From IMG/VR virus record IMGVR_UViG_2695420569_000028: DNA of 11,925 nt; one strand, 5' to 3'. The translations under genes were made by a program, and so were the position numbers. The notes under the pieces are model-generated. The model searched no databases and was not told where the DNA came from. It worked only from the letters and a program-made list of their open reading frames with translations. The stretch's first letter is position 1. The number at the start of each line of letters is the position of its first letter. Source of the stretch: a virus (lineage: Duplodnaviria; Heunggongvirae; Uroviricota; Caudoviricetes). Shown here piece after piece: positions 666 through 11,925 of this stretch.

Positions 666-934
666 TCGTTCCTCCTGACACTGCGTCTATCGAACACATT
701 TTTCGCCAGTGTGGCGTTCAGTAAGATAAAGCCGCTTCGCATTCCATGCTAATATAGGCCAACGCAATTCATATAGCCGTTGATACCTAATGTGATTACA
801 CTAGTAAAATATATTGTTACTTTACTATCGTTTAGGTGCGCTGAATGAATCTGCGCCCTGAATTCTGGTAAAAAACATTATCGTAAATTACCATTTCTTT
901 CAACAGCTTACTAGTAAACAAGAAGTTAGCCTCC

Positions 935-2620
935 GTGAATATAAACGTCGCCGAATTGTTAAATGGGAATTACATTCTGTTATTATTTGTGGTCCTCGCG
1001 CTTGGGCTATGTCTCGGAAAGTTACGACTTGGTTCGATCCAACTGGGTAATTCCATTGGCGTTTTAGTCGTATCGCTGTTATTAGGCCAACAACATTTCA
1101 GCATTAACACCGATGCGCTTAATCTTGGCTTTATGCTGTTTATTTTCTGCGTCGGGGTCGAAGCCGGACCGAACTTTTTTTCCATTTTTTTTCGCGATGG
1201 GAAAAATTACCTAATGTTAGCACTGGTGATGGTTGGCAGTGCGCTGGTGATCGCCTTAGGGTTAGGTAAGCTGTTTGGCTGGGATATTGGCCTGACGGCC
1301 GGTATGTTAGCAGGCTCTATGACGTCGACACCGGTTCTGGTCGGTGCTGGCGATACACTGCGTCATTCCGGCATGGAAAGCAGGCAGCTCTCACTGGCAC
1401 TGGATAATCTGAGCCTCGGGTATGCCTTAACCTATTTAATCGGTCTGGTGAGTTTGATTGTTGGTGCGCGTTACTTGCCGAAATTGCAGCATCAGGACTT
1501 ACAGACCAGCGCCCAGCAAATCGCCCGCGAACGTGGCCTGGACACTGATGCCAACCGTAAGGTTTATTTACCGGTGATCCGCGCCTATCGCGTCGGCCCG
1601 GAGCTGGTGGCCTGGACCGACGGCAAAAATCTGCGTGAACTGGGTATTTATCGACAAACCGGCTGCTACATTGAACGTATTCGACGTAACGGGATTCTGG
1701 CAAATCCAGACGGTGATGCCGTGCTACAAATGGGCGATGAAATAGCGTTGGTAGGCTATCCCGACGCCCATGCCCGACTCGATCCCAGCTTCCGTAACGG
1801 TAAAGAAGTTTTCGATCGTGACCTTCTCGACATGCGTATCGTCACTGAAGAAGTGGTCGTTAAAAACCATAACGCTGTAGGTAAACGTCTCGCACAACTG
1901 AAGTTGACCGATCACGGTTGCTTCCTTAACCGCGTCATTCGTAGCCAGATTGAGATGCCGATAGATGACAACGTCGTGCTTAACAAAGGTGACGTTTTAC
2001 AAGTCAGCGGTGATGCCCGTCGCGTAAAAACCATCGCCGATCGCATCGGCTTTATCTCGATTCACAGCCAGGTCACTGACCTGCTGGCATTTTGCGCCTT
2101 CTTTGTTATTGGGCTGATGATCGGGATGATCACCTTCCAGTTCAGCACATTCAGTTTCGGCATGGGGAACGCTGCCGGGTTGTTATTCGCCGGAATTATG
2201 CTGGGCTTTATGCGTGCTAACCACCCGACCTTCGGTTACATTCCGCAAGGTGCATTAAGCATGGTGAAAGAGTTCGGCTTGATGGTGTTTATGGCAGGCG
2301 TTGGTCTGAGCGCCGGTAGCGGTATTAATAACGGCCTGGGCGCGATTGGCGGTCAGATGTTGATTGCCGGATTAATTGTCAGTCTTGTGCCCGTGGTTAT
2401 CTGTTTCTTGTTCGGTGCTTATGTATTGCGAATGAACCGCGCACTGTTGTTCGGCGCAATGATGGGCGCACGCACCTGCGCGCCGGCAATGGAGATCATC
2501 AGTGATACAGCTCGCAGTAACATCCCTGCGCTGGGCTATGCGGGCACCTACGCAATCGCCAACGTCCTGCTGACGCTGGCAGGGACAATCATCGTCATGG
2601 TATGGCCAGGATTAGGATAA
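935..2620 (+). CDS. ybjL: putative AAE-family transporter YbjL (two membrane domains flanking TrkA-C/RCK_C-like soluble region)
   Basis: 561-aa ORF, GTG start at 935; hydrophobic N- and C-terminal halves with a soluble central region; sequence recognised as E. coli YbjL. Confidence 0.93.
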
Positions 2621-2732
2621 AACTGAAGTTGCCCTGAAAATGAAATTTTTTTGCACAACCGCAGAACTTTTCCGCAGGGCATCAGTCTTAATTAGTGCCA
2701 CTGCTTTTCTTTGATGTCCCCATTTTGTGGAG

Positions 2733-2775
2733 CCCATCAACCCCGCCATTTCGGTTCAAGGTTGATGGGTTTTTT
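2733..2775 (+). terminator. rho-independent terminator in the ybjL / prophage-end intergenic region
   Basis: Perfect 10-bp inverted repeat CCCATCAACC (2733-2742) / GGTTGATGGG (2760-2769), with extra CCG/CGG pairing inside the loop, followed by TTTTTT (2770-2775). Only the + strand has the T-run, so it terminates ybjL-direction transcription. Confidence 0.55.
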
Positions 2776-2855
2776 GTTGCCTGAAATTTATGCCGTTTAA
2801 AATCATGACGTTAGAAGCACTGTTTTTTAACGATGGCGACAAAATGGCGGCAGCG

Positions 2856-3074
2856 TCAAAGAGAGAGCGCCACCTGTCCTGATTTCATTGGATGCGGCTG
2901 AACCGGATTTGACTCTTTTGGCGTTGCAATCGAACGAACAAAAGTTTCATGGGTTACAAAAGTATGGCTGCAGTTAATATTCTGGCACTGGTTGTAACGC
3001 TCTTTGGTCAATGAAGATACCTGAAAACTGCTGCGAGTATGGGCGGCACTTCCACACAGTGGGCAAATCATCAT
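2856..3074 (-). CDS. ogr: Ogr/Delta-family zinc-finger late-gene transcription activator
   Basis: C-X2-C-X22-C-X4-C motif (CPLCGSAAHTRSSFQVSSLTKERYNQCQNINC) and KERYxQCQNxNC signature typical of P2 Ogr. The longest ORF is 83 aa (start 3107), but the internal Met at 3074 gives a 72-aa product with a GGAG Shine-Dalgarno about 10 nt upstream, matching Ogr length. Position after gene D matches P2 order. Confidence 0.85.
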   Translation of the reverse strand: MMICPLCGSAAHTRSSFQVSSLTKERYNQCQNINCSHTFVTHETFVRSIATPKESNPVQPHPMKSGQVALSL

Positions 3075-3164
3075 TTTTCGAGTTCTCCCCATTTTTGCTA
3101 AATTCACAATAATGATACCGCATTATTCCATTTTGCAAACTTAAAAGTTCTCCATTGCGAAGAA

Positions 3165-4265
3165 TCATTCCATTTCGAAATCATCAATCCTCACTTCAAG
3201 CTCCAGACTGGTTGTAAAACCGTTATCGGGGCTGACGGTATGCGTCAGAGTCGTAATGGTCCATTCCGCATCATCTATCGGTTGTTTAAAGCCACTAACT
3301 TTCACTGGCATTTCCGTGTAAAGATCTGCCCGCCCTTCCGCCAGTTGTAGCGAGAATGACGCAACGCCGCGTTGCAGGCGTTCCCACTGCATTTTCGCTG
3401 CCCGTTCAGCGTTGCTCCGGTTGGCATAAGTGCGATTAAGTACCAGCACGTTTTCATCCGTACCCACCAGGTAATCGCCCTGCTTCGCTTCCGGCTCTTT
3501 CTTCTGCTTCTTAGTTCTGCGCTTACGCTTCACCGTGGTGCTTTCTTTCTTCGCAGGTTCGCGGGTATGCAACCAGCTGGCAATTACGCCCGTGTAGGCT
3601 CCGCGATCTGCCAGGGTAAAGCGGTGACTGTCGCCGTCCTTGCGTGTGATAGTGATCACTGGCAGTGGTTTACCAGTGGCGCTTTTGCCCTGCCCCTGCC
3701 GGATGAATAACAGATTGCCATTTTTCACCGACGCGATGGCACCGTACTGTCGCGCCAGCCGCATCAGAAAACTACCGTCACTCTCATTAGTCTGGTCTAT
3801 ATGCTCCACGAGCTTATCCGACAGGTCTTTACCCAGTACCATCTTCAGCTTGTGCCGCGCGGCTATCTCCTTCACCACTTCCCCAATGGTGGTCTTGTGC
3901 CACGATTTTTCACGGCGGGTATTCAGCGTTTCCCGAAAATCAGCACTTCGCGCCCGGATAGTCAGGCGGTCCGGTGCGCCAGTGTGTTCAATCTCGTCCA
4001 CCGTGAATGCCCCTTTCGGGAAAAGCGGCTGCCCCTTCCAGCCCAGCGCCAGCGTAATGACCGCACCACGGCGCGGCAGCACGATTTTCCCGTCGGCATC
4101 GTCCAGCTCCAGATCAAGCTGGTCTGCTTCAAAGCCCCGATTGTCCGTCAGAGTCAGACTCATCAGGCGGTTATCCAGCACAGTGGTGATATCCCTACCC
4201 TCAATACTGATGCTGAATGCCGGAGTTTTGTTGCTTTTGTTAAGCAGTTCAGAGCTGAAATTCAC
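3165..4265 (-). CDS. D: P2 gpD-like tail protein (late control gene D family)
   Basis: 366-aa ORF; GTG start overlapping the U stop (GTGA); lysine/arginine-rich linker (KRKRRTKKQKK) typical of gpD; sits at the end of the FI-FII-E-T-U-D tail operon. Confidence 0.88.
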   Translation of the reverse strand: MNFSSELLNKSNKTPAFSISIEGRDITTVLDNRLMSLTLTDNRGFEADQLDLELDDADGKIVLPRRGAVITLALGWKGQPLFPKGAFTVDEIEHTGAPDRLTIRARSADFRETLNTRREKSWHKTTIGEVVKEIAARHKLKMVLGKDLSDKLVEHIDQTNESDGSFLMRLARQYGAIASVKNGNLLFIRQGQGKSATGKPLPVITITRKDGDSHRFTLADRGAYTGVIASWLHTREPAKKESTTVKRKRRTKKQKKEPEAKQGDYLVGTDENVLVLNRTYANRSNAERAAKMQWERLQRGVASFSLQLAEGRADLYTEMPVKVSGFKQPIDDAEWTITTLTHTVSPDNGFTTSLELEVRIDDFEME

Positions 4266-4747
4266 GACAGCAGCCCTCCCACCGTTTTACTGATATCGCT
4301 TAAGGCAGACGTTGCCGTTTCCTGCAGATTATTCAGTTGCGCACTGAGATCACCGAACATATCGGACAGGGATTCATCCACCCGTTTGAGCGACAGGGTG
4401 AACTCAATCCGGCGCGGCATACCGTCGCGGAAAAACTCCGTTTTAGTCTGATTCAGTCCCTCAATCACATACATGCCATAAATCGTGCCGCTGCCTTCAA
4501 TCAGGGGCCATGCTTTCCCCTGTTCTGCCATCTGCTCCAGTGCCAGCAACGACAGCCTGCCACCTGTTATCTCCGGCATAAGAACACCGGAAAGCGTCAG
4601 CATGTCGTTGTCCGGTCCCAGAAACTGCGTGGACGGACGTCGGTTTACCCGGCTGTTTGCCGCATGTCGCCAGCTGCGTTGATACTGCAGCTCCTGATAC
4701 GGCACGGTGCGCAGCATAAACACGTACAATCCCAGCACCATCATCAT
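4262..4747 (-). CDS. U: P2 gpU-like tail protein
   Basis: 161-aa ORF beginning MMMVLGLYVF, recognised as gpU family; start overlaps the T stop and stop overlaps the D start (translational coupling). Confidence 0.88.
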   Translation of the reverse strand: MMMVLGLYVFMLRTVPYQELQYQRSWRHAANSRVNRRPSTQFLGPDNDMLTLSGVLMPEITGGRLSLLALEQMAEQGKAWPLIEGSGTIYGMYVIEGLNQTKTEFFRDGMPRRIEFTLSLKRVDESLSDMFGDLSAQLNNLQETATSALSDISKTVGGLLS

Positions 4748-7700
4748 GCGTCGTATCCCCCCTGATCGCTGTAGTTACTCCTGGCTTTTGCCTTCAGCCT
4801 ACGTTCACGTTCATCAAGCTGGCGGGCCACCTCCCGCGCAATATCCTGCGCACTTTGTCCTGGCTGCGTCTGAATGATGATCTGCATCGGTGCCTCAATC
4901 CGTTGAACGGGCGGCACAGTGGCTGCACGACTCACCATCGCTTCGCCGCCTTTCGCGGGAAGTGCCAAAGGGTGCAACGGTGGAAGCTCTGCAGGCGCGG
5001 CAGCAACGCCCATCATTCCGGCAACAACGGCAGCCAGTGCAGCTGTATTTCTCCGGCTGGTCACATTTGCCGGGCCGTTAACAATTTCCGGCCCGTTTTC
5101 ACCGACGATGCCAAACTGCCCGCGCGGGATATAGCCGCCGCTGTCATACATCCCCGCAAAGCCATATCCCCATGACGGAAAACCACCCGATGGCATCATC
5201 ACTTTACCGTCTGCATTCACCGTCGCAGGTTGCTGACGCGTCACGCTTTCCGGCAGTTTCGCCTTTGCAGCCTCTTTACTGACAATGCCGAGTTTATCCA
5301 GCAACCAGGAAACGCCAGATTTCAGGGAGTCCAGCGGATGCATAACCATATTCAGCCCTTCCGCCAGTGCCTCCCCGAATCGTCGCCCCATTGCCGCTGC
5401 GCTCTGCAGTTCGGCAGAAGTCGACTTAACGGGCGTCAGCAGATCAGTAAACCAGCCCCACAGCGCCTGCACTTTGTCACCAATCCACTGGAACACAGGC
5501 TTAAGCGGTTCGAACGCTGCACTGATGGGACCTGCCGCCGCTTTGAATCCTTCCACCACGCCACCGAGAAATGCGGTGATGGGTTGCCAGTATTTCCAGA
5601 CAACCAGTGCCACACCCGCCAGTGCAGTAACCACAAGACCTATCGGACTGAGCAGAGCACCTAACAGACCAGATACGGCATACAGGGCAACGCGCAACAT
5701 CGCCAGTGGACCAGATGCCAGTACTCGCAGCACCGTGCCTGCGGCAGCCAGCCCGCCGCGTAGTGCTGCCAGTGGATTCATAAACATCACAGCAACCGCA
5801 CGTAAACCGGATAATCCAGACCGCAAAAGTGCAACCGGCGCACCTGCTACAGTTTTCAGGACATTTCCCGTCAGTGATGCCGTGCGGCGCAAAGACGACA
5901 ACGGCGCAGTAAGTAAACCTGCGGCGTTGCCCGATGAAGCAAGCCCGCGTCGCAGCAGTGCCAGTGGTGCGCCAGCCAGCCAGGACAACGCGCTGCTGGT
6001 TCGAGTTACTGCTGCCGTAACGGAAGATAACGTTTTGATACCCAACACAGAGAATCCCAGACGGATCACTGCCAGCGGCCCCAGCACTGCAGCCAGCGCC
6101 ACCGCTAAGGTGCCGAGGCCGACGGTAACCGCAGCCACAACAGCCGATGCTTTCATCAGTGTGCCTGTCAGTTCCGGGTTAGCTTCCACCCAGCGACGCA
6201 ACGCCCCCGTGACGCTTTTCACCGTGTACAGAATATCCATCAGCGGCTGGCGCAGCGTTTCGCCCAGGCTGCTGAAGGTGTTCTGCGCTCCGGTTTTGAC
6301 CAGCAACCACTGCGCAGAAAGTGAATCCTTGTTAATGTCGGATTCTTTCTGCATGGAGCCGAGCGCATCATTGCCCGCTGTCAGTTTTAACTGACGCTGC
6401 AGTTCCGGCAGGTTGTTTGCCAGTTTCGCCGCGTCATCGCCAAACTCTTTACCAAACAACATAGTCATGGCAGACAGGCGCTTGTCCTGCGGCAGCGCGT
6501 TTACCTTCTCCAGCACGCGCTGGATGGTTCCCATCGCATCCTTCGTCATCTGCTTTTCAATCACTTCAGGATTGAGTTTCAGCAGATTCATCCCTTCAAA
6601 GAAACTCTTGCTTTGCATGGTGGCAATGGACAATTCACGCACCATCGCGTTTGCTGCACTGGCTGCAACCTCTGGCGCAGCGCCCAGTGTCAGGAAGGTG
6701 GAACCCAGCGCCGCCGCTTTACGATAATCCAGACGGTCAGCCACACCGCCCAGACGTTGCATCACATCAATGATGTCTGCCCCTTTCGACATGGCGTTAT
6801 CATCCAGATAGTTCAGCGCATCACCGAGCTGTTCAATATTGCGGGTGGGGATTTTGTAGAGCTGGGCGATTTTCCCCAGACTTTCTGACAGTTCATCCGC
6901 TGGCAGCTCAAAGGCTGTTGCCGCCTTTGCTGCCGTACTGGCGAAGGCCAGCAGGTCACGTTTCTGATCTTCCCAGCTGTCGTCAGGGTTTGCGACGTTC
7001 ATGCGCGCACCACCTTCAACCAGTGCAGCGAAGTCCACCGCACCGTTTTCCATCGGCAACTGTTCGCTGGCAGCCTTGATGGCATCCTGCATTTCATAAA
7101 AACGTGCAGTGCGGTTGCCATTATCGTCACGCAGACCATTGACCTGCTTTGCCACACCTTTCATGGCATCTTCCATGCTGGTATAGCTTTTTACTGCCGC
7201 CATCACTGGCGCACCCATTGCCAGCCCTGCAGCCGTGGTGGTGGCTCCGGCACCTGCAATACGATCACGCACCTCCAGCGAACGGGCATAACTGGCACGC
7301 GCTGCATTCATCCTGCGCTGAGCTTCCCCCAGTCGCTTCAGCCGCGCCTCCTGTTTCGAAAGTTCCTGGTTATAACGTGATGTTTCACGGGCTAAACGGG
7401 CAGTTGCTCCCGCATCGTCTTTCGCAGAAATTCCCGCCCGGTACAGTTCAGCACGCACAAGCGCCGTCTGCTGCTGCAGCTTTTTCTGGCGTTCTTCCAG
7501 GCGCTGAACAGCCAGCCGTTGACGGCCCAGAGCAACAACCTGACGTTGCGAAGGCGGCCCCATCGCTCCCAGTTCCTGACTGAGCAAATTTGCACGCTGG
7601 CGGGCATAGTTCAGCCTGTCGCCTAATTTCTGATTTTCTGCCTGCAGCTTTCGGAAGCTGTCCAGACTGCTCCCGGCCTGATCAAGCTGCTTTATTGCAT

Positions 7701-7821
7701 CGCGGGATTTTTTGACAGCAGCAGCCAGTTCTCTTGAACTGGCCTGCGCAGATCGAAATGGACGGGTGAGCTTGTCAACCGCATTAAGAATGACCTGCAG
7801 ACGCAGGTTGTTATCACTCAT
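4744..7821 (-). CDS. T: tail tape measure protein (P2 gpT-like)
   Basis: 1025-aa ORF; coiled-coil-like N-terminal region, central Ala/Gly/Leu-rich hydrophobic repeat block, Gly-rich C-terminus; positioned directly after E/E' as in P2. Confidence 0.9.
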   Translation of the reverse strand: MSDNNLRLQVILNAVDKLTRPFRSAQASSRELAAAVKKSRDAIKQLDQAGSSLDSFRKLQAENQKLGDRLNYARQRANLLSQELGAMGPPSQRQVVALGRQRLAVQRLEERQKKLQQQTALVRAELYRAGISAKDDAGATARLARETSRYNQELSKQEARLKRLGEAQRRMNAARASYARSLEVRDRIAGAGATTTAAGLAMGAPVMAAVKSYTSMEDAMKGVAKQVNGLRDDNGNRTARFYEMQDAIKAASEQLPMENGAVDFAALVEGGARMNVANPDDSWEDQKRDLLAFASTAAKAATAFELPADELSESLGKIAQLYKIPTRNIEQLGDALNYLDDNAMSKGADIIDVMQRLGGVADRLDYRKAAALGSTFLTLGAAPEVAASAANAMVRELSIATMQSKSFFEGMNLLKLNPEVIEKQMTKDAMGTIQRVLEKVNALPQDKRLSAMTMLFGKEFGDDAAKLANNLPELQRQLKLTAGNDALGSMQKESDINKDSLSAQWLLVKTGAQNTFSSLGETLRQPLMDILYTVKSVTGALRRWVEANPELTGTLMKASAVVAAVTVGLGTLAVALAAVLGPLAVIRLGFSVLGIKTLSSVTAAVTRTSSALSWLAGAPLALLRRGLASSGNAAGLLTAPLSSLRRTASLTGNVLKTVAGAPVALLRSGLSGLRAVAVMFMNPLAALRGGLAAAGTVLRVLASGPLAMLRVALYAVSGLLGALLSPIGLVVTALAGVALVVWKYWQPITAFLGGVVEGFKAAAGPISAAFEPLKPVFQWIGDKVQALWGWFTDLLTPVKSTSAELQSAAAMGRRFGEALAEGLNMVMHPLDSLKSGVSWLLDKLGIVSKEAAKAKLPESVTRQQPATVNADGKVMMPSGGFPSWGYGFAGMYDSGGYIPRGQFGIVGENGPEIVNGPANVTSRRNTAALAAVVAGMMGVAAAPAELPPLHPLALPAKGGEAMVSRAATVPPVQRIEAPMQIIIQTQPGQSAQDIAREVARQLDERERRLKAKARSNYSDQGGYDA

Positions 7822-8250
7822 CGTTGGCCCCGCTTCTCTGAATCGCTTTATACCGCCATTCCAGCACTTCGGTCAGCGGCATAACGTCAGTAACGGATGG
7901 CGGCCAGTGAAAAATGGTGGCGATATCTGCCACCAGATCGTCAACCGTCAGGCTGTCGGTAAACCGGCAAGCACCGACTTCTTCAACAAAAAAGTGACAA
8001 CCTCAACCGACATGGCAGTGAGATCTGCCGGGTCCATCTCTGCAATTTCCTGTGCAGTCAGTGCCGGACTGGAGATGCGGGGGATCACGGTCATCATCGC
8101 GTTTACATCCATATCCATAATGGCCTGCAGGCGTGTACCGCGCAGCGCACCGGACTGCGGTTTACGCAGCACAATTTCGGTGATTTCTGTTTTACCGCGC
8201 TTGATGGGGGTATCCAGTTGAATGGTCTTTTCAGTCTGCTTATCGCTCAT
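7814..8250 (-). CDS. E': tail assembly chaperone gpE+E' made by programmed -1 ribosomal frameshift (about 145 aa)
   Basis: Hand translation: frame 0 reads ..V T F L L K K S..stop; after a -1 slip at T_TTT_TTG the reading continues FFVEEVGACRFTDSLTVDDLVADIATIFHWPPSVTDVMPLTEVLEWRYKAIQRSGANDE and stops at TGA (7816-7814), overlapping the T start codon (7821-7819). Predicted length is close to P2 gpE+E' (about 142 aa). Confidence 0.75.
7948..8250 (-). CDS. E: tail assembly chaperone gpE (frame-0 product)
   Basis: 100-aa ORF between FII and T; contains the slippery heptamer near its 3' end. Confidence 0.88.
   Translation of the reverse strand: MSDKQTEKTIQLDTPIKRGKTEITEIVLRKPQSGALRGTRLQAIMDMDVNAMMTVIPRISSPALTAQEIAEMDPADLTAMSVEVVTFLLKKSVLAGLPTA
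7987..7993 (-). promoter_or_regulatory. slippery heptamer T_TTT_TTG for the E/E' -1 frameshift
   Basis: Minus-strand ACT TTT TTG read in gpE frame 0 (T86-F87-L88); X_XXY_YYZ geometry; the same heptamer is used in the P2 E/E' frameshift. Confidence 0.75.
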
Positions 8251-8304
8251 TTTGCTGTCCTGTCAATTGGGTTCTGGCGCGGTATCCCGCGCCGTTCAGA
8301 TATA

Positions 8305-8820
8305 TCAGAGGCCGAGGGCGTTGCGGTGCGCTTCCATCAGGTCCACACCGTCCACAATTTCCACCATGTTGATAAGGTCCACTTCATAGAGCACCTCACC
8401 ATTGATGGTCAGCTTCGCGTAGCTGTTGGTACTGGTCACTTTGGTGGTGTTGCTTTCGCCCGTCTTCCACTCGCCGGAATCCACTTCTTTGTGACGTCCA
8501 CGCACGACAAGCTCCACGGCCTGCACTTCCCCGGTATCGTCACGCTGAATAGAGCCGGTAAAGCGCAGCTGGATGCCATCCACCGTGGCTTTACCCATCT
8601 GTTTAAACAGCAGCAATTCAGTACCACCAATGGAAAATTCTGTGTCCAGCGCACTGTCATCAAGCCCCAGATCCACATCCACCGCACCCGGCATTCCGCC
8701 GCCGCGATACTTCTCATATTTGCGGGTAAATTTCGGCAGCGTCAGCGACTCAACGATCCCCTGCCAGTTGTTCCCGTCGTTAAACAGGTTCAGGTGTTTT
8801 AATTTGCGTGGTAATGCCAT
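8305..8820 (-). CDS. FII: tail tube protein (P2 gpFII-like)
   Basis: 171-aa ORF immediately downstream of FI with a GGGGA Shine-Dalgarno in the 9-bp spacer; size and position match gpFII. Confidence 0.9.
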   Translation of the reverse strand: MALPRKLKHLNLFNDGNNWQGIVESLTLPKFTRKYEKYRGGGMPGAVDVDLGLDDSALDTEFSIGGTELLLFKQMGKATVDGIQLRFTGSIQRDDTGEVQAVELVVRGRHKEVDSGEWKTGESNTTKVTSTNSYAKLTINGEVLYEVDLINMVEIVDGVDLMEAHRNALGL

Positions 8821-8829
8821 GTTGTCCCC

Positions 8830-10002
8830 TTACGCGCTGACCTGGCTGGCGAAATTCACCAGGTACTGATCGGTGATGCGCTGACGCAGCATCAGGTTTT
8901 CAAGTGGCGGCACTGGCGTGTAGTCGTAGTCGATGGTGAGTTTTCCGGCTTTCAGCGTGTCTTTGTCGTTCACCGACTCATCCAGCCAGCAATCACCACC
9001 AATGAGATAGCCCTGACTGACCAGGCTGCGCATTTTGGCGCGGATACCTTCGATAATGTCGCGGGCCAGCGACGGGTTAAGCGGTTTATCCACCGCCCAC
9101 ATGTGTGCTTCTGCCATCGTGTCCATCAGCACCTGCGCCGTGCGGGTGTAGTTTTCGAAGGCAAAGAGCGGGTCATCACTCAGGCAGCGGGAACCCCAGA
9201 AGCGGAAACCGTCTTTACGCACAAGCGTGGTGACGTCGTTCTGGTTCAGCAGACCTGCATCGGTTGCCGGGTCCTGCAGATCCCAGAACACATCTGCAGA
9301 AATTCCGGTGACACCGTTCACGCCCACGTTGGACAGGCTTTTGTGCCATCCGGTCTGCTCGTCAATTTTGGCGCGCAGACCAAGCGCACGGGCGGTGGCA
9401 TATGCCGTTGCTTCGGCATTCAGCACCGTGTCCCAACCAGTAAAGTCAGGCCAGATCAGCATCCCTTCGCGCTGGCTGAAGTTTTCGCGGTAAGTGATCG
9501 CCTCCTGCACTGTCTTGCAGCCATACGCTGACAGGTAAGCAAATCCACGCAGGCGTTGCGCCACGCTCAGCAACTCAGTAGCTACCGCCTTGGTGTCGTG
9601 GCCTGGCACGCCGAGAATGCGCGGTTTAACGCCGAGCTGTGACTGGGCAGATAACAGGGCTTTCATACCTGTTTTTTTACCTTCAGCAGTCACTGCGCCG
9701 ATGATATTGGTCGTGGTTTCGTCTTCCGTTTCACCCTGCGGCACACGCACAACAATGGTCACGGGTTTTGCCTGGTCAGCGATGGCATCCAGCGAACGGG
9801 CCAGAGTACCTGACTCACCCGCTTTACCGCTGGCAGTCAGCACATCAGTGATCAGCACGGGTTTATTAAGAGGAAACATTTTTGCATCGGCATCATCGCC
9901 CGTGCAGACCATACCCACGATGGCGGTGCTCACCGTGGTAATAGATCGGGTGCCTTCGTTGACTTCAACAACGCGCACCCCGTGGTGGTAATCCTGAGCC
10001 AT
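8830..10002 (-). CDS. FI: contractile tail sheath protein (P2 gpFI-like)
   Basis: 390-aa ORF; AGGAGG Shine-Dalgarno 9 nt upstream of the ATG; first gene of the FI-FII-E-T-U-D block; size matches gpFI (about 396 aa). Confidence 0.9.
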
Positions 10003-10078
10003 AGTGGCGAACCTCCTGATTGGATTAGGCTTCGCCCTATGTTGAAGTGATTGTGCCTGACAAACAGCTAAGCGCAGT

Positions 10079-10096
10079 TGTGTCGTTATTCACACA
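10079..10096 (-). promoter_or_regulatory. candidate Ogr-dependent late promoter element (TGT-N12-ACA dyad) upstream of FI
   Basis: TGT (10079-10081), 12 nt, ACA (10094-10096), centred about 86 bp upstream of the FI ATG and embedded in a larger inverted repeat CGTTATT/AATAACG (10084-10104). P2 late promoters carry a TGT-N12-ACA element near -55. Confidence 0.4.
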
Positions 10097-10144
10097 AAAT
10101 AACGGTATTTGTCTGCTTGCAGGGATAATCAACATAATGCTGAT

Positions 10145-10711
10145 TCAGGGGGATTCATTGATCTTATTTGCCGGAAATTTTCTATAAATGGTAGAAACGC
10201 CTACATCAAAAATCAGTGCAATACGCTGTATTGATTCTCCGGCCTCGAGTAAACGCCCAATCTGTGCCCACTGTTCGGTGGTCAACTTAGGACGGCGTCC
10301 ACCTACTCTGCCTTTGGCACGAGCTGCAGCCAGCCCTGCCCTGGTACGTTCAACTATCAGTTCGCGTTCCATTTCAGCCAGGGCACCCATGACATGAAAA
10401 AAGAAACGGCCCATTGGGGTACTGGTATCAATACTGTCAGTCAGGCTTCTGAAATTCACACCACGCTGGCGCAACTCTTCTATCAGCGTAACAAGATGCC
10501 GCATACTGCGCCCCAACCTGTCCAGCTTCCAGACAACCAGCGTGTCTCCTGCCGATAGTGTCCTGAGTAGTTTTTTCAGCCCCGGTCTGTCGGACTTAGT
10601 GCCACTGATTTTGTCCTCAAAAATCCGCTCACATCCCGCGCAGTTCAGTGCATTACGTTGCAAATCGGTGTTCTGGTCATTTGTTGACACGCGTACATAG
10701 CCAATAAGCAT
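10145..10711 (-). CDS. serine DNA invertase, Hin/Gin/Cin/Pin (Din) family
   Basis: N-terminus MLIGYVRVSTNDQ with the catalytic Ser in the conserved position, resolvase catalytic domain motifs (LVVWKLDRLGRS, GRFFFHVMGALAEMEREL), C-terminal HTH (GESIQRIALIFDVGVSTIYRKF). Longest ORF starts 2 codons earlier (MIM-LIG, 10717); the conserved MLIG start at 10711 is preferred. Confidence 0.92.
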   Translation of the reverse strand: MLIGYVRVSTNDQNTDLQRNALNCAGCERIFEDKISGTKSDRPGLKKLLRTLSAGDTLVVWKLDRLGRSMRHLVTLIEELRQRGVNFRSLTDSIDTSTPMGRFFFHVMGALAEMERELIVERTRAGLAAARAKGRVGGRRPKLTTEQWAQIGRLLEAGESIQRIALIFDVGVSTIYRKFPANKINESP

Positions 10712-10738
10712 GATCATCCCCCTGAATAAAAACCGGAG

Positions 10739-11074
10739 ATGATGCCAGTTAGCTGGTACCTCTGCATTTTCTTAAACGTTGGTTTTGGAGAAGGTGCTAA
10801 CTGGGTTATGTTACCTGGAGGAATGATAATTCAGCGTGTTTATCTTGGATTTCCTATTGGCACCAATGCAAGACACATAACTTTCCCCCGGTCGTTTACA
10901 ACAACGAACTATTCCATCTCAATTAACTGGAATGATATCGGTACTGTAACAACTGAAACACAATCACCAGCAAATGTGGCGGTTGTTCATCAAACAAAAT
11001 CATTAACAGGGGCCAGCATCTGGCAGGCAGGTCCCGGGGGATTTAATGTGGACATTATAGCGGTGGGGTATTGA
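10739..11074 (+). CDS. promoterless tail-fibre C-terminal variable-domain cassette (inferred 'off' orientation); functional part likely 10793-11071
   Basis: ORF runs away from the invertase, begins inside the crossover site (site encodes ..FLNVGFGE..), and is rich in Gly/Thr/Asn/Ser. Its arrangement relative to the site and invertase mirrors the silent fibre cassette of the Mu G segment. First ATG is probably not a real start. Confidence 0.45.
10767..10792. promoter_or_regulatory. 26-bp Din-family crossover site (hix/gix/cix-like)
   Basis: TTTTCTTAAACG-TT-GGTTTTGGAGAA: imperfect dyad with AAAC-N4-GTTT core geometry; right half matches the recalled gix half-site GGTTTTGGATAA at 11 of 12 positions; lies 50 bp upstream of the invertase start, at the 5' boundary of the fibre cassette. 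Confidence 0.6.
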
Positions 11075-11081
11075 TATGTAA

Positions 11082-11216
11082 AAGAGGAAACATTTTTGCA
11101 TCGGCATCATCGCCCGTGCAGACCATACCCACGATGGCGGTGCTCACCGTGGTAATAGATCGGGTGCCTTCGTTGACTTCAACAACGCGCACCCCGTGGT
11201 GGTAATCCTGAGCCAT
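11082..11216 (-). pseudogene. duplicated 5' fragment of FI (first 45 codons) with its promoter and Shine-Dalgarno
   Basis: Identical to 9868-10002; the reading frame runs into the 3' end of the fibre cassette on the opposite strand instead of the FI body. Confidence 0.7.
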
Positions 11217-11292
11217 AGTGGCGAACCTCCTGATTGGATTAGGCTTCGCCCTATGTTGAAGTGATTGTGCCTGACAAACAGCTAAGCGCAGT

Positions 11293-11310
11293 TGTGTCGT
11301 TATTCACACA
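11293..11310 (-). promoter_or_regulatory. second copy of the TGT-N12-ACA late-promoter dyad (within duplicated unit)
   Basis: Identical to 10079-10096 at offset 1,214. Confidence 0.35.
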
Positions 11311-11358
11311 AAATAACGGTATTTGTCTGCTTGCAGGGATAATCAACATAATGCTGAT

Positions 11359-11925
11359 TCAGGGGGATTCATTGATCTTATTTGCCGGAAATTTTCTATA
11401 AATGGTAGAAACGCCTACATCAAAAATCAGTGCAATACGCTGTATTGATTCTCCGGCCTCGAGTAAACGCCCAATCTGTGCCCACTGTTCGGTGGTCAAC
11501 TTAGGACGGCGTCCACCTACTCTGCCTTTGGCACGAGCTGCAGCCAGCCCTGCCCTGGTACGTTCAACTATCAGTTCGCGTTCCATTTCAGCCAGGGCAC
11601 CCATGACATGAAAAAAGAAACGGCCCATTGGGGTACTGGTATCAATACTGTCAGTCAGGCTTCTGAAATTCACACCACGCTGGCGCAACTCTTCTATCAG
11701 CGTAACAAGATGCCGCATACTGCGCCCCAACCTGTCCAGCTTCCAGACAACCAGCGTGTCTCCTGCCGATAGTGTCCTGAGTAGTTTTTTCAGCCCCGGT
11801 CTGTCGGACTTAGTGCCACTGATTTTGTCCTCAAAAATCCGCTCACATCCCGCGCAGTTCAGTGCATTACGTTGCAAATCGGTGTTCTGGTCATTTGTTG
11901 ACACGCGTACATAGCCAATAAGCAT
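11359..11925 (-). CDS. serine DNA invertase, second identical copy (start codon at window edge)
   Basis: 188-aa translation identical to copy 1; the ATG of MLIG lies at 11925-11923, the last bases of the window. Confidence 0.85.
   Translation of the reverse strand: MLIGYVRVSTNDQNTDLQRNALNCAGCERIFEDKISGTKSDRPGLKKLLRTLSAGDTLVVWKLDRLGRSMRHLVTLIEELRQRGVNFRSLTDSIDTSTPMGRFFFHVMGALAEMERELIVERTRAGLAAARAKGRVGGRRPKLTTEQWAQIGRLLEAGESIQRIALIFDVGVSTIYRKFPANKINESP

Follow-up and report, generated by a model that had tools for sequence, protein, structure and literature searches.

An apparent 1.2-kb tandem repeat beside the invertible tail-fibre segment of a P2-like prophage is very probably an artefact of draft assembly

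The perfect tandem repeat at the right-hand end of an 11,925-nucleotide viral record (IMG/VR record IMGVR_UViG_2695420569_000028; this whole stretch of DNA is called the window below) is not a real genomic feature, and we are highly confident that it was produced during scaffolding or gap filling, when a phase-variable locus was put together in a draft assembly. What the DNA really contains is a single P2-like prophage next to ybjL. It has one DNA invertase gene of the Gin/Pin type and one invertible segment of 1746 bp, and when this segment turns, the tail fibre gene exchanges its C-terminal end along with its assembly chaperone. The part of the sequence that looks like a second copy is the same single locus with this segment in the other orientation, because it matches an inverted single-copy relative at 1050 of 1050 bases.

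The window runs through grxA, ybjM and ybjL into the tail end of the prophage, where ogr, D, U, the tape measure gene, E, FII and FI are followed by the invertase gene and a silent fibre cassette (Table 1). In single-copy relatives FI is followed by the invertase gene, then, on the other strand, by the “gp53-like” cassette, next by two tail fibre assembly genes of which the second is oriented the opposite way, and last by the fibre gene. This arrangement is standard for invertible tail-fibre segments. The cassette protein and the tail fibre assembly gene after it occur as the same pair in five other assemblies. The fibre coding of the cassette ORF lies only to the right of the crossover site, and this right-hand site, with its central dinucleotide at 10779-10780, is the only crossover site present in the window.

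When the window is compared with itself, positions 9868-10711 recur at 11082-11925 with identity at 844 of 844 bases and a start-to-start spacing of 1214 bp, far above the chance expectation, and the identity does not extend leftward of 9868 and 11082. The preliminary description of this DNA, which reported the same recurrence without differences, is borne out on this point, and it also correctly identified the parts of the unit, namely the 5' end of FI, the TGT-N12-ACA element, the invertase, the crossover site and the fibre cassette. Its headline reading, that the repeat is a real tandem duplication of these parts, is not supported by the source record, by the nature of the second block or by the survey of closed genomes described below.

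Table 1. Features of the FI-to-fibre region, in window coordinates; L002 is a single-copy sibling assembly.
Feature	Position	Strand	Basis
Tail sheath gene FI, P2-type, 390 aa (the single real copy)	8830..10002	-	ORF; Pfam Phage_sheath families on identical product; RefSeq “phage tail sheath protein”
First 45 codons of FI, inside the repeat	10002 down to 9868	-	
TGT-N12-ACA element upstream of FI	10079..10096, again 11293-11310	.	Pattern match
Serine DNA invertase, Gin/Hin/Cin/Pin type, 188 aa as annotated	10145..10711	-	Pfam and PDB matches
Silent alternative tail-fibre C-terminal cassette, “gp53-like domain”, 111-codon ORF	10739..11074	+	Translation; RefSeq annotation of equivalent gene
Right crossover site (copy 1), 26 bp, TTTTCTTAAACG-TT-GGTTTTGGAGAA	10767..10792	.	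Inverted-repeat pairing with left site in L002
Crossover site, left site of L002 read in reverse, TTCTCACATACC-TT-GGTTTGGGAGAA			
Crossover site, copy 2, TTTTCTTAAACG-TT-GGTTTGGGAGAA			
Tail fibre assembly gene, first five bases ATGTA	11076..11080	+	Alignment to single-copy relatives
Scaffold gap, “N” in public record, “A” in window	11081	.	Comparison with CYAW01000014.1
Second block: FI codons 45 to 1, promoter region, invertase	11082..11925	-	Match to inverted L002

An exact look-up of the cassette protein led to an NCBI draft contig of 106,000 bp (GCA_001286145.1:CYAW01000014.1), with which window positions 739-11925 agree at every base except one. The exception is position 11081, where the window has an A and the record, at its position 104950, has an N that lies exactly on the join between the two blocks and is the sole non-ACGT base in the 11.4-kb locus of the record. 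The window itself contains no N at all, and since the N is displayed there as an A, the join has the look of a sequenced junction. In other words, the join is a one-base scaffold gap and not a sequenced junction. Alignment to single-copy relatives leads to the same position: on the left, homology ends at 11080 (…GATATGTA, where the relatives continue CGTATGG…), and on the right, the homology to the FI side starts at 11082 (AAGAGGAAAC…), while the A at 11081 agrees with neither parent sequence. The left-hand block has its last determined bases in the first five of the tail fibre assembly gene; the relatives run on …ATGTACGTATGG. One homology stops at 11080 and the other starts at 11082, with no microhomology between them in this alignment. 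A determined junction sequence, which a genuine duplication should possess, is thus lacking in the source record, and the single N is what a misjoin leads one to look for.

The public record also explains where the window stops. A truncated sheath ORF of 53 codons and a second recombinase are annotated there as genes, so the window ends exactly at a gene boundary, and the contig itself stops 206 bp farther on. An exact look-up of the 53-aa product of the truncated sheath ORF gave no match; the product in the record carries an X that comes from the N.

The 206 bases beyond the window bear on the nature of the second block. Their first 74 bases follow copy 1 and then differ from it, so that the two copies are identical over 918 bp only, which is short of the full unit. 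In unit coordinates the first difference falls at 10786, within the 26-bp crossover site, and the divergence is complete after that site. The site in copy 2 is a hybrid: its left half is that of the right site, its right half is that of the inverted left site, and the two are joined at the central dinucleotide (Table 1). The comparison was made with a single-copy sibling assembly (L002, GCA_001284985.1, contig CYDJ01000009.1, 75896-96231), which has 7 differences from the source over the 10,342 positions that they share before the N, one of the 7 being in the prophage. This sibling has its crossover sites at 10029-10054 and 11775-11800, in inverted orientation and with their centres 1746 bp apart, and the sequence that follows the copy 2 site in the source is the reverse complement of its positions 11650-11768, the variable part of the fibre gene that adjoins the left site.

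In silico, we flipped the 1746 bp of L002 that lie between the two central dinucleotides and compared the product with all of the source sequence to the right of the N. This is the comparison that gave 1050 matching bases out of 1050, with 0 mismatches, and it covers the second block in the window together with the 206 bases beyond it. A second copy that repeats the unit, as a genuine duplication would have, is not what follows the join: after 918 bp there stand a hybrid site and an inverted fibre end, and the sequence past the join is the alternative isomer of the locus, as a misjoin leads one to anticipate. The preliminary description had kept an assembly artefact of the inversion region as its fallback, and had named a mis-joined inversion isomer as the outcome that would refute the duplication; the N at the join and the complete match to the flipped isomer uphold the former, and such an isomer is what the evidence shows. 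Its expectation of two invertase genes, two crossover sites in direct orientation, and a decoy late promoter with a truncated sheath peptide falls with the duplication.

The closed genomes speak with the same voice. At least 80% of the window is covered at this locus in 768 of 5426 closed E. coli genomes. Among the matches listed, the matching length reaches at most about 11,080 bp of the 11,925 bp, so each of these records has one copy; it had been proposed that related P2-like prophages be checked for copy number at this locus, and among the matches listed from closed E. coli genomes the number is one. None of the 5426 closed genomes covers more than 50% of a 200-bp query with the join at its centre, and the exact junction strings are absent from species-representative genomes, metagenome contigs and viral contigs. 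Independent sightings of the junction thus number 0 among the 5426 closed E. coli genomes. On the other hand, the arrangement of copy 2 itself is continuous in 240 closed records (241 genomes), counted as at least 80% cover of a 400-bp query across the 5' end of the invertase gene and the hybrid site, and both orientations of the segment are present among closed genomes. Strain 13E0767, whose genome comes nearest to the left part of the window among the closed ones (99.8% identity), was considered as an isomer control and set aside, since the cassettes that it carries on the right of the crossover site are different ones. TUM9754 was used in its place; it is the one record with the copy 2 arrangement that was inspected, and it has a single invertase.

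How could two forms of one locus have come to stand in a row? The record contains both isomers, and for this reason both orientations of the segment were apparently present in the sequenced culture. They would have given two assembly blocks that have in common the 5' end of FI, the promoter, the invertase gene and one half of the crossover site. The block from orientation 1 would run into the silent cassette, and that from orientation 2 into the expressed fibre end, read as its reverse complement. The two blocks would then have been set in series with a single residual N between them, and the contig would have ended soon after. The right-hand block begins exactly at codon 45 of FI, and the left-hand block ends 5 bases into the assembly gene.

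The assembly accessions are not mentioned in searchable papers, and we accordingly infer the method of assembly: the software step behind the join, the short-read origin of the data, and the way in which some 0.9 kb of common sequence came to be written twice. Four further draft assemblies that carry this cassette have contig breaks within the segment or close to it, which is consistent with short reads combined with a scaffolder or a gap filler. Gap-filling tools of this sort leave one N if a gap cannot be closed. It should be mentioned that the N alone is no proof against a sequence that spans the join. The authors of a widely used pipeline built from Velvet, SSPACE and GapFiller state that these greedy tools can produce false joins (PMC5320598). 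A join first appears as a run of N; GapFiller fills this gap from both edges and closes it only if the extensions overlap (PMC5320598; PMC3446322). The locus resembles short-read misjoins from scaffolding or gap filling (for example, with SSPACE/GapFiller) in its single N, in its duplicated flanks, in the end of the contig close by, and in being a locus with two forms.

A block that carries an invertase could also have come from another place, if a second, related P2-like prophage in the same genome had been wrongly scaffolded onto the first; the repeat would then still be an artefact, made by joining two loci. In some closed E. coli genomes the region is matched at as many as 5 places, so an extra invertase-bearing element of the P2 type is common. 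However, the block is the flipped form of this very prophage without a single mismatch, and the match includes the 5' end of FI, the promoter and the variable part of the fibre gene, so that a simple inversion isomer explains everything with no extra element. We consider a second prophage very unlikely as the source of the block.

A genuine and recent tandem duplication in the isolate, in which the junction base was merely left uncalled and the segment beside copy 2 happened to be flipped, is likewise very unlikely. In its favour, no difference separates the two copies inside the window, illegitimate recombination can give a blunt join that lacks microhomology, and the sequence taken alone forbids nothing; head-to-tail identical copies with a novel join are also what real bacterial tandem duplications, formed by unequal crossing-over or illegitimate recombination, look like. 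The present case differs from these in that its join is undetermined, its copy 2 is partial and leads into the other isomer, and its junction is found in none of the other genomes searched. Three coincidences would be needed: the only undetermined base in 11.4 kb of the record falling on the join, a second unit that is the flipped isomer at every one of 1050 bases instead of a second unit proper, and the end of the contig only 206 bp later. It also counts against a duplication that a perfect tandem repeat of 1.2 kb would be unstable to homologous recombination, and that short-insert read pairs could not legitimately resolve a repeat of that kind. Had the duplication been true, the locus would have a second invertase gene, and a pair of crossover sites in direct repeat would compete with the inverted partner site; the switch could then turn either of two nested segments, or lose the unit by deletion. 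As for a junction made by the invertase itself at a secondary site, some 300 bp separate the join from the crossover site, and on inspection neither parent sequence at the join resembles a half-site, so we rejected this origin.

With the repeat read as an assembly join between two isomers, the real feature is an ordinary invertible tail-fibre switch of the Gin/Cin/Pin/Hin type (Din family), which is a known kind and is common in E. coli. Known members are the G segment of phage Mu, the C segment of P1, the P segment of e14, and the switches of invertase-bearing P2-like prophages. As in these systems, the recombinase is small, of the serine type, and very near to DNA invertases with solved structures. 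It has the N-terminal motif GYVRVST, a resolvase catalytic domain (Pfam Resolvase, PF00239) and a C-terminal helix-turn-helix domain (HTH_7, PF02796), and its ORF has a possible alternative start at 10717. Its best solved relatives are PDB entries 3uj3 and 4m6f, deposited as “DNA-invertase” (E = 1e-91, residues 1-184), which we take to be Gin of phage Mu. Two 26-bp crossover sites in inverted orientation flank the segment, at the distance given above for L002, and the alternative fibre C-termini lie in opposite orientations, each with its own chaperone (gene tables of L001, L002 and L009). Both orientations are found, and the hybrid site places the exchange at the central dinucleotide. There is no notable difference from the known switches; this one belongs to a tail module of the P2 type, where it has the fibre genes on one side and FI on the other, as it does in hundreds of closed E. 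coli genomes.

The element upstream of FI at 10079-10096 is a candidate Ogr-dependent late promoter element, a role that is suggested by the biology of P2; the TGT-N12-ACA pattern has 7 matches against 3.3 expected, and taken alone is not significant.

The case carries a warning for readers of draft genomes. A single N that is rendered as a base turns a scaffold join into what seems to be a perfect and recent duplication with extra genes, here a second “recombinase” and a sheath ORF truncated to 53 codons. Because both orientations coexist in culture, invertible segments are a predictable site for such artefacts. The presence of both isomers in one record also indicates that inversion was probably active, and with it the invertase of the prophage, in the culture that was sequenced; this is a modest point, and one to be expected for a switch of so well known a kind.

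Draft assemblies routinely break at the invertible tail-fibre locus. In four further draft assemblies that carry the identical cassette, the contig ends either within the invertible segment or no more than about 110 bp away from it, and the positions concerned are collected in the table below. On the 2-kb contig of L007, the first 80 or so bases (L007:1-80) have no match to the sibling prophage, and a comparison with the single-copy sibling locus L002 gives 154 mismatches overall, the first of them at the contig start. This unmatched start could be another contig-end artefact, or it could reflect a different downstream context. The invertase on this contig is called as a protein of 194 aa.

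Contig ends in draft assemblies sharing the fibre cassette, and the gene at the prophage end
Feature	Locus	Position or length	Strand	Remark
Contig end	L003	11908
Contig end	L005	11298
Contig end	L006	11157
Short contig	L007	2002 bp
ogr	window	about 2856-3074	minus	at prophage end

Base 11081 is “N” in the matching public record, whereas it is “A” in the window. It seems that undetermined bases were swapped for a normal base at some step between the record and the window; replacements of this kind can hide scaffold gaps.

The 111-codon cassette ORF opens with some 13 codons (window 10739-10778) that lie left of the crossover centre, within the spacer adjoining the invertase, and the start of this annotated “gene” therefore belongs to no fibre protein. 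After inversion, only the portion of the ORF to the right of the crossover site has a coding role.

Gene calling in GCA_001284985.1, the sibling assembly, splits the tape measure gene (L002:4006-7083, corresponding to window 4744-7821) into two ORFs, 520 and 504 aa long. Between L002 and the source contig there is one difference in this region, at L002:5569 (window 6307), which probably represents either a nonsense mutation or a sequencing error.

The prophage end lies directly downstream of ybjL (window 2620-3165). At least 80% of the window is covered at the ybjL locus in 768 of the 5426 closed E. coli genomes, and this site is therefore a P2-like insertion point in frequent use. The same tail module is also found at ssrA, not ybjL, in the closed genome S1-CAM-01-A (L001:14670-16175), where the annotation divides the fibre gene into two pseudogene pieces with about 650 bp between them.
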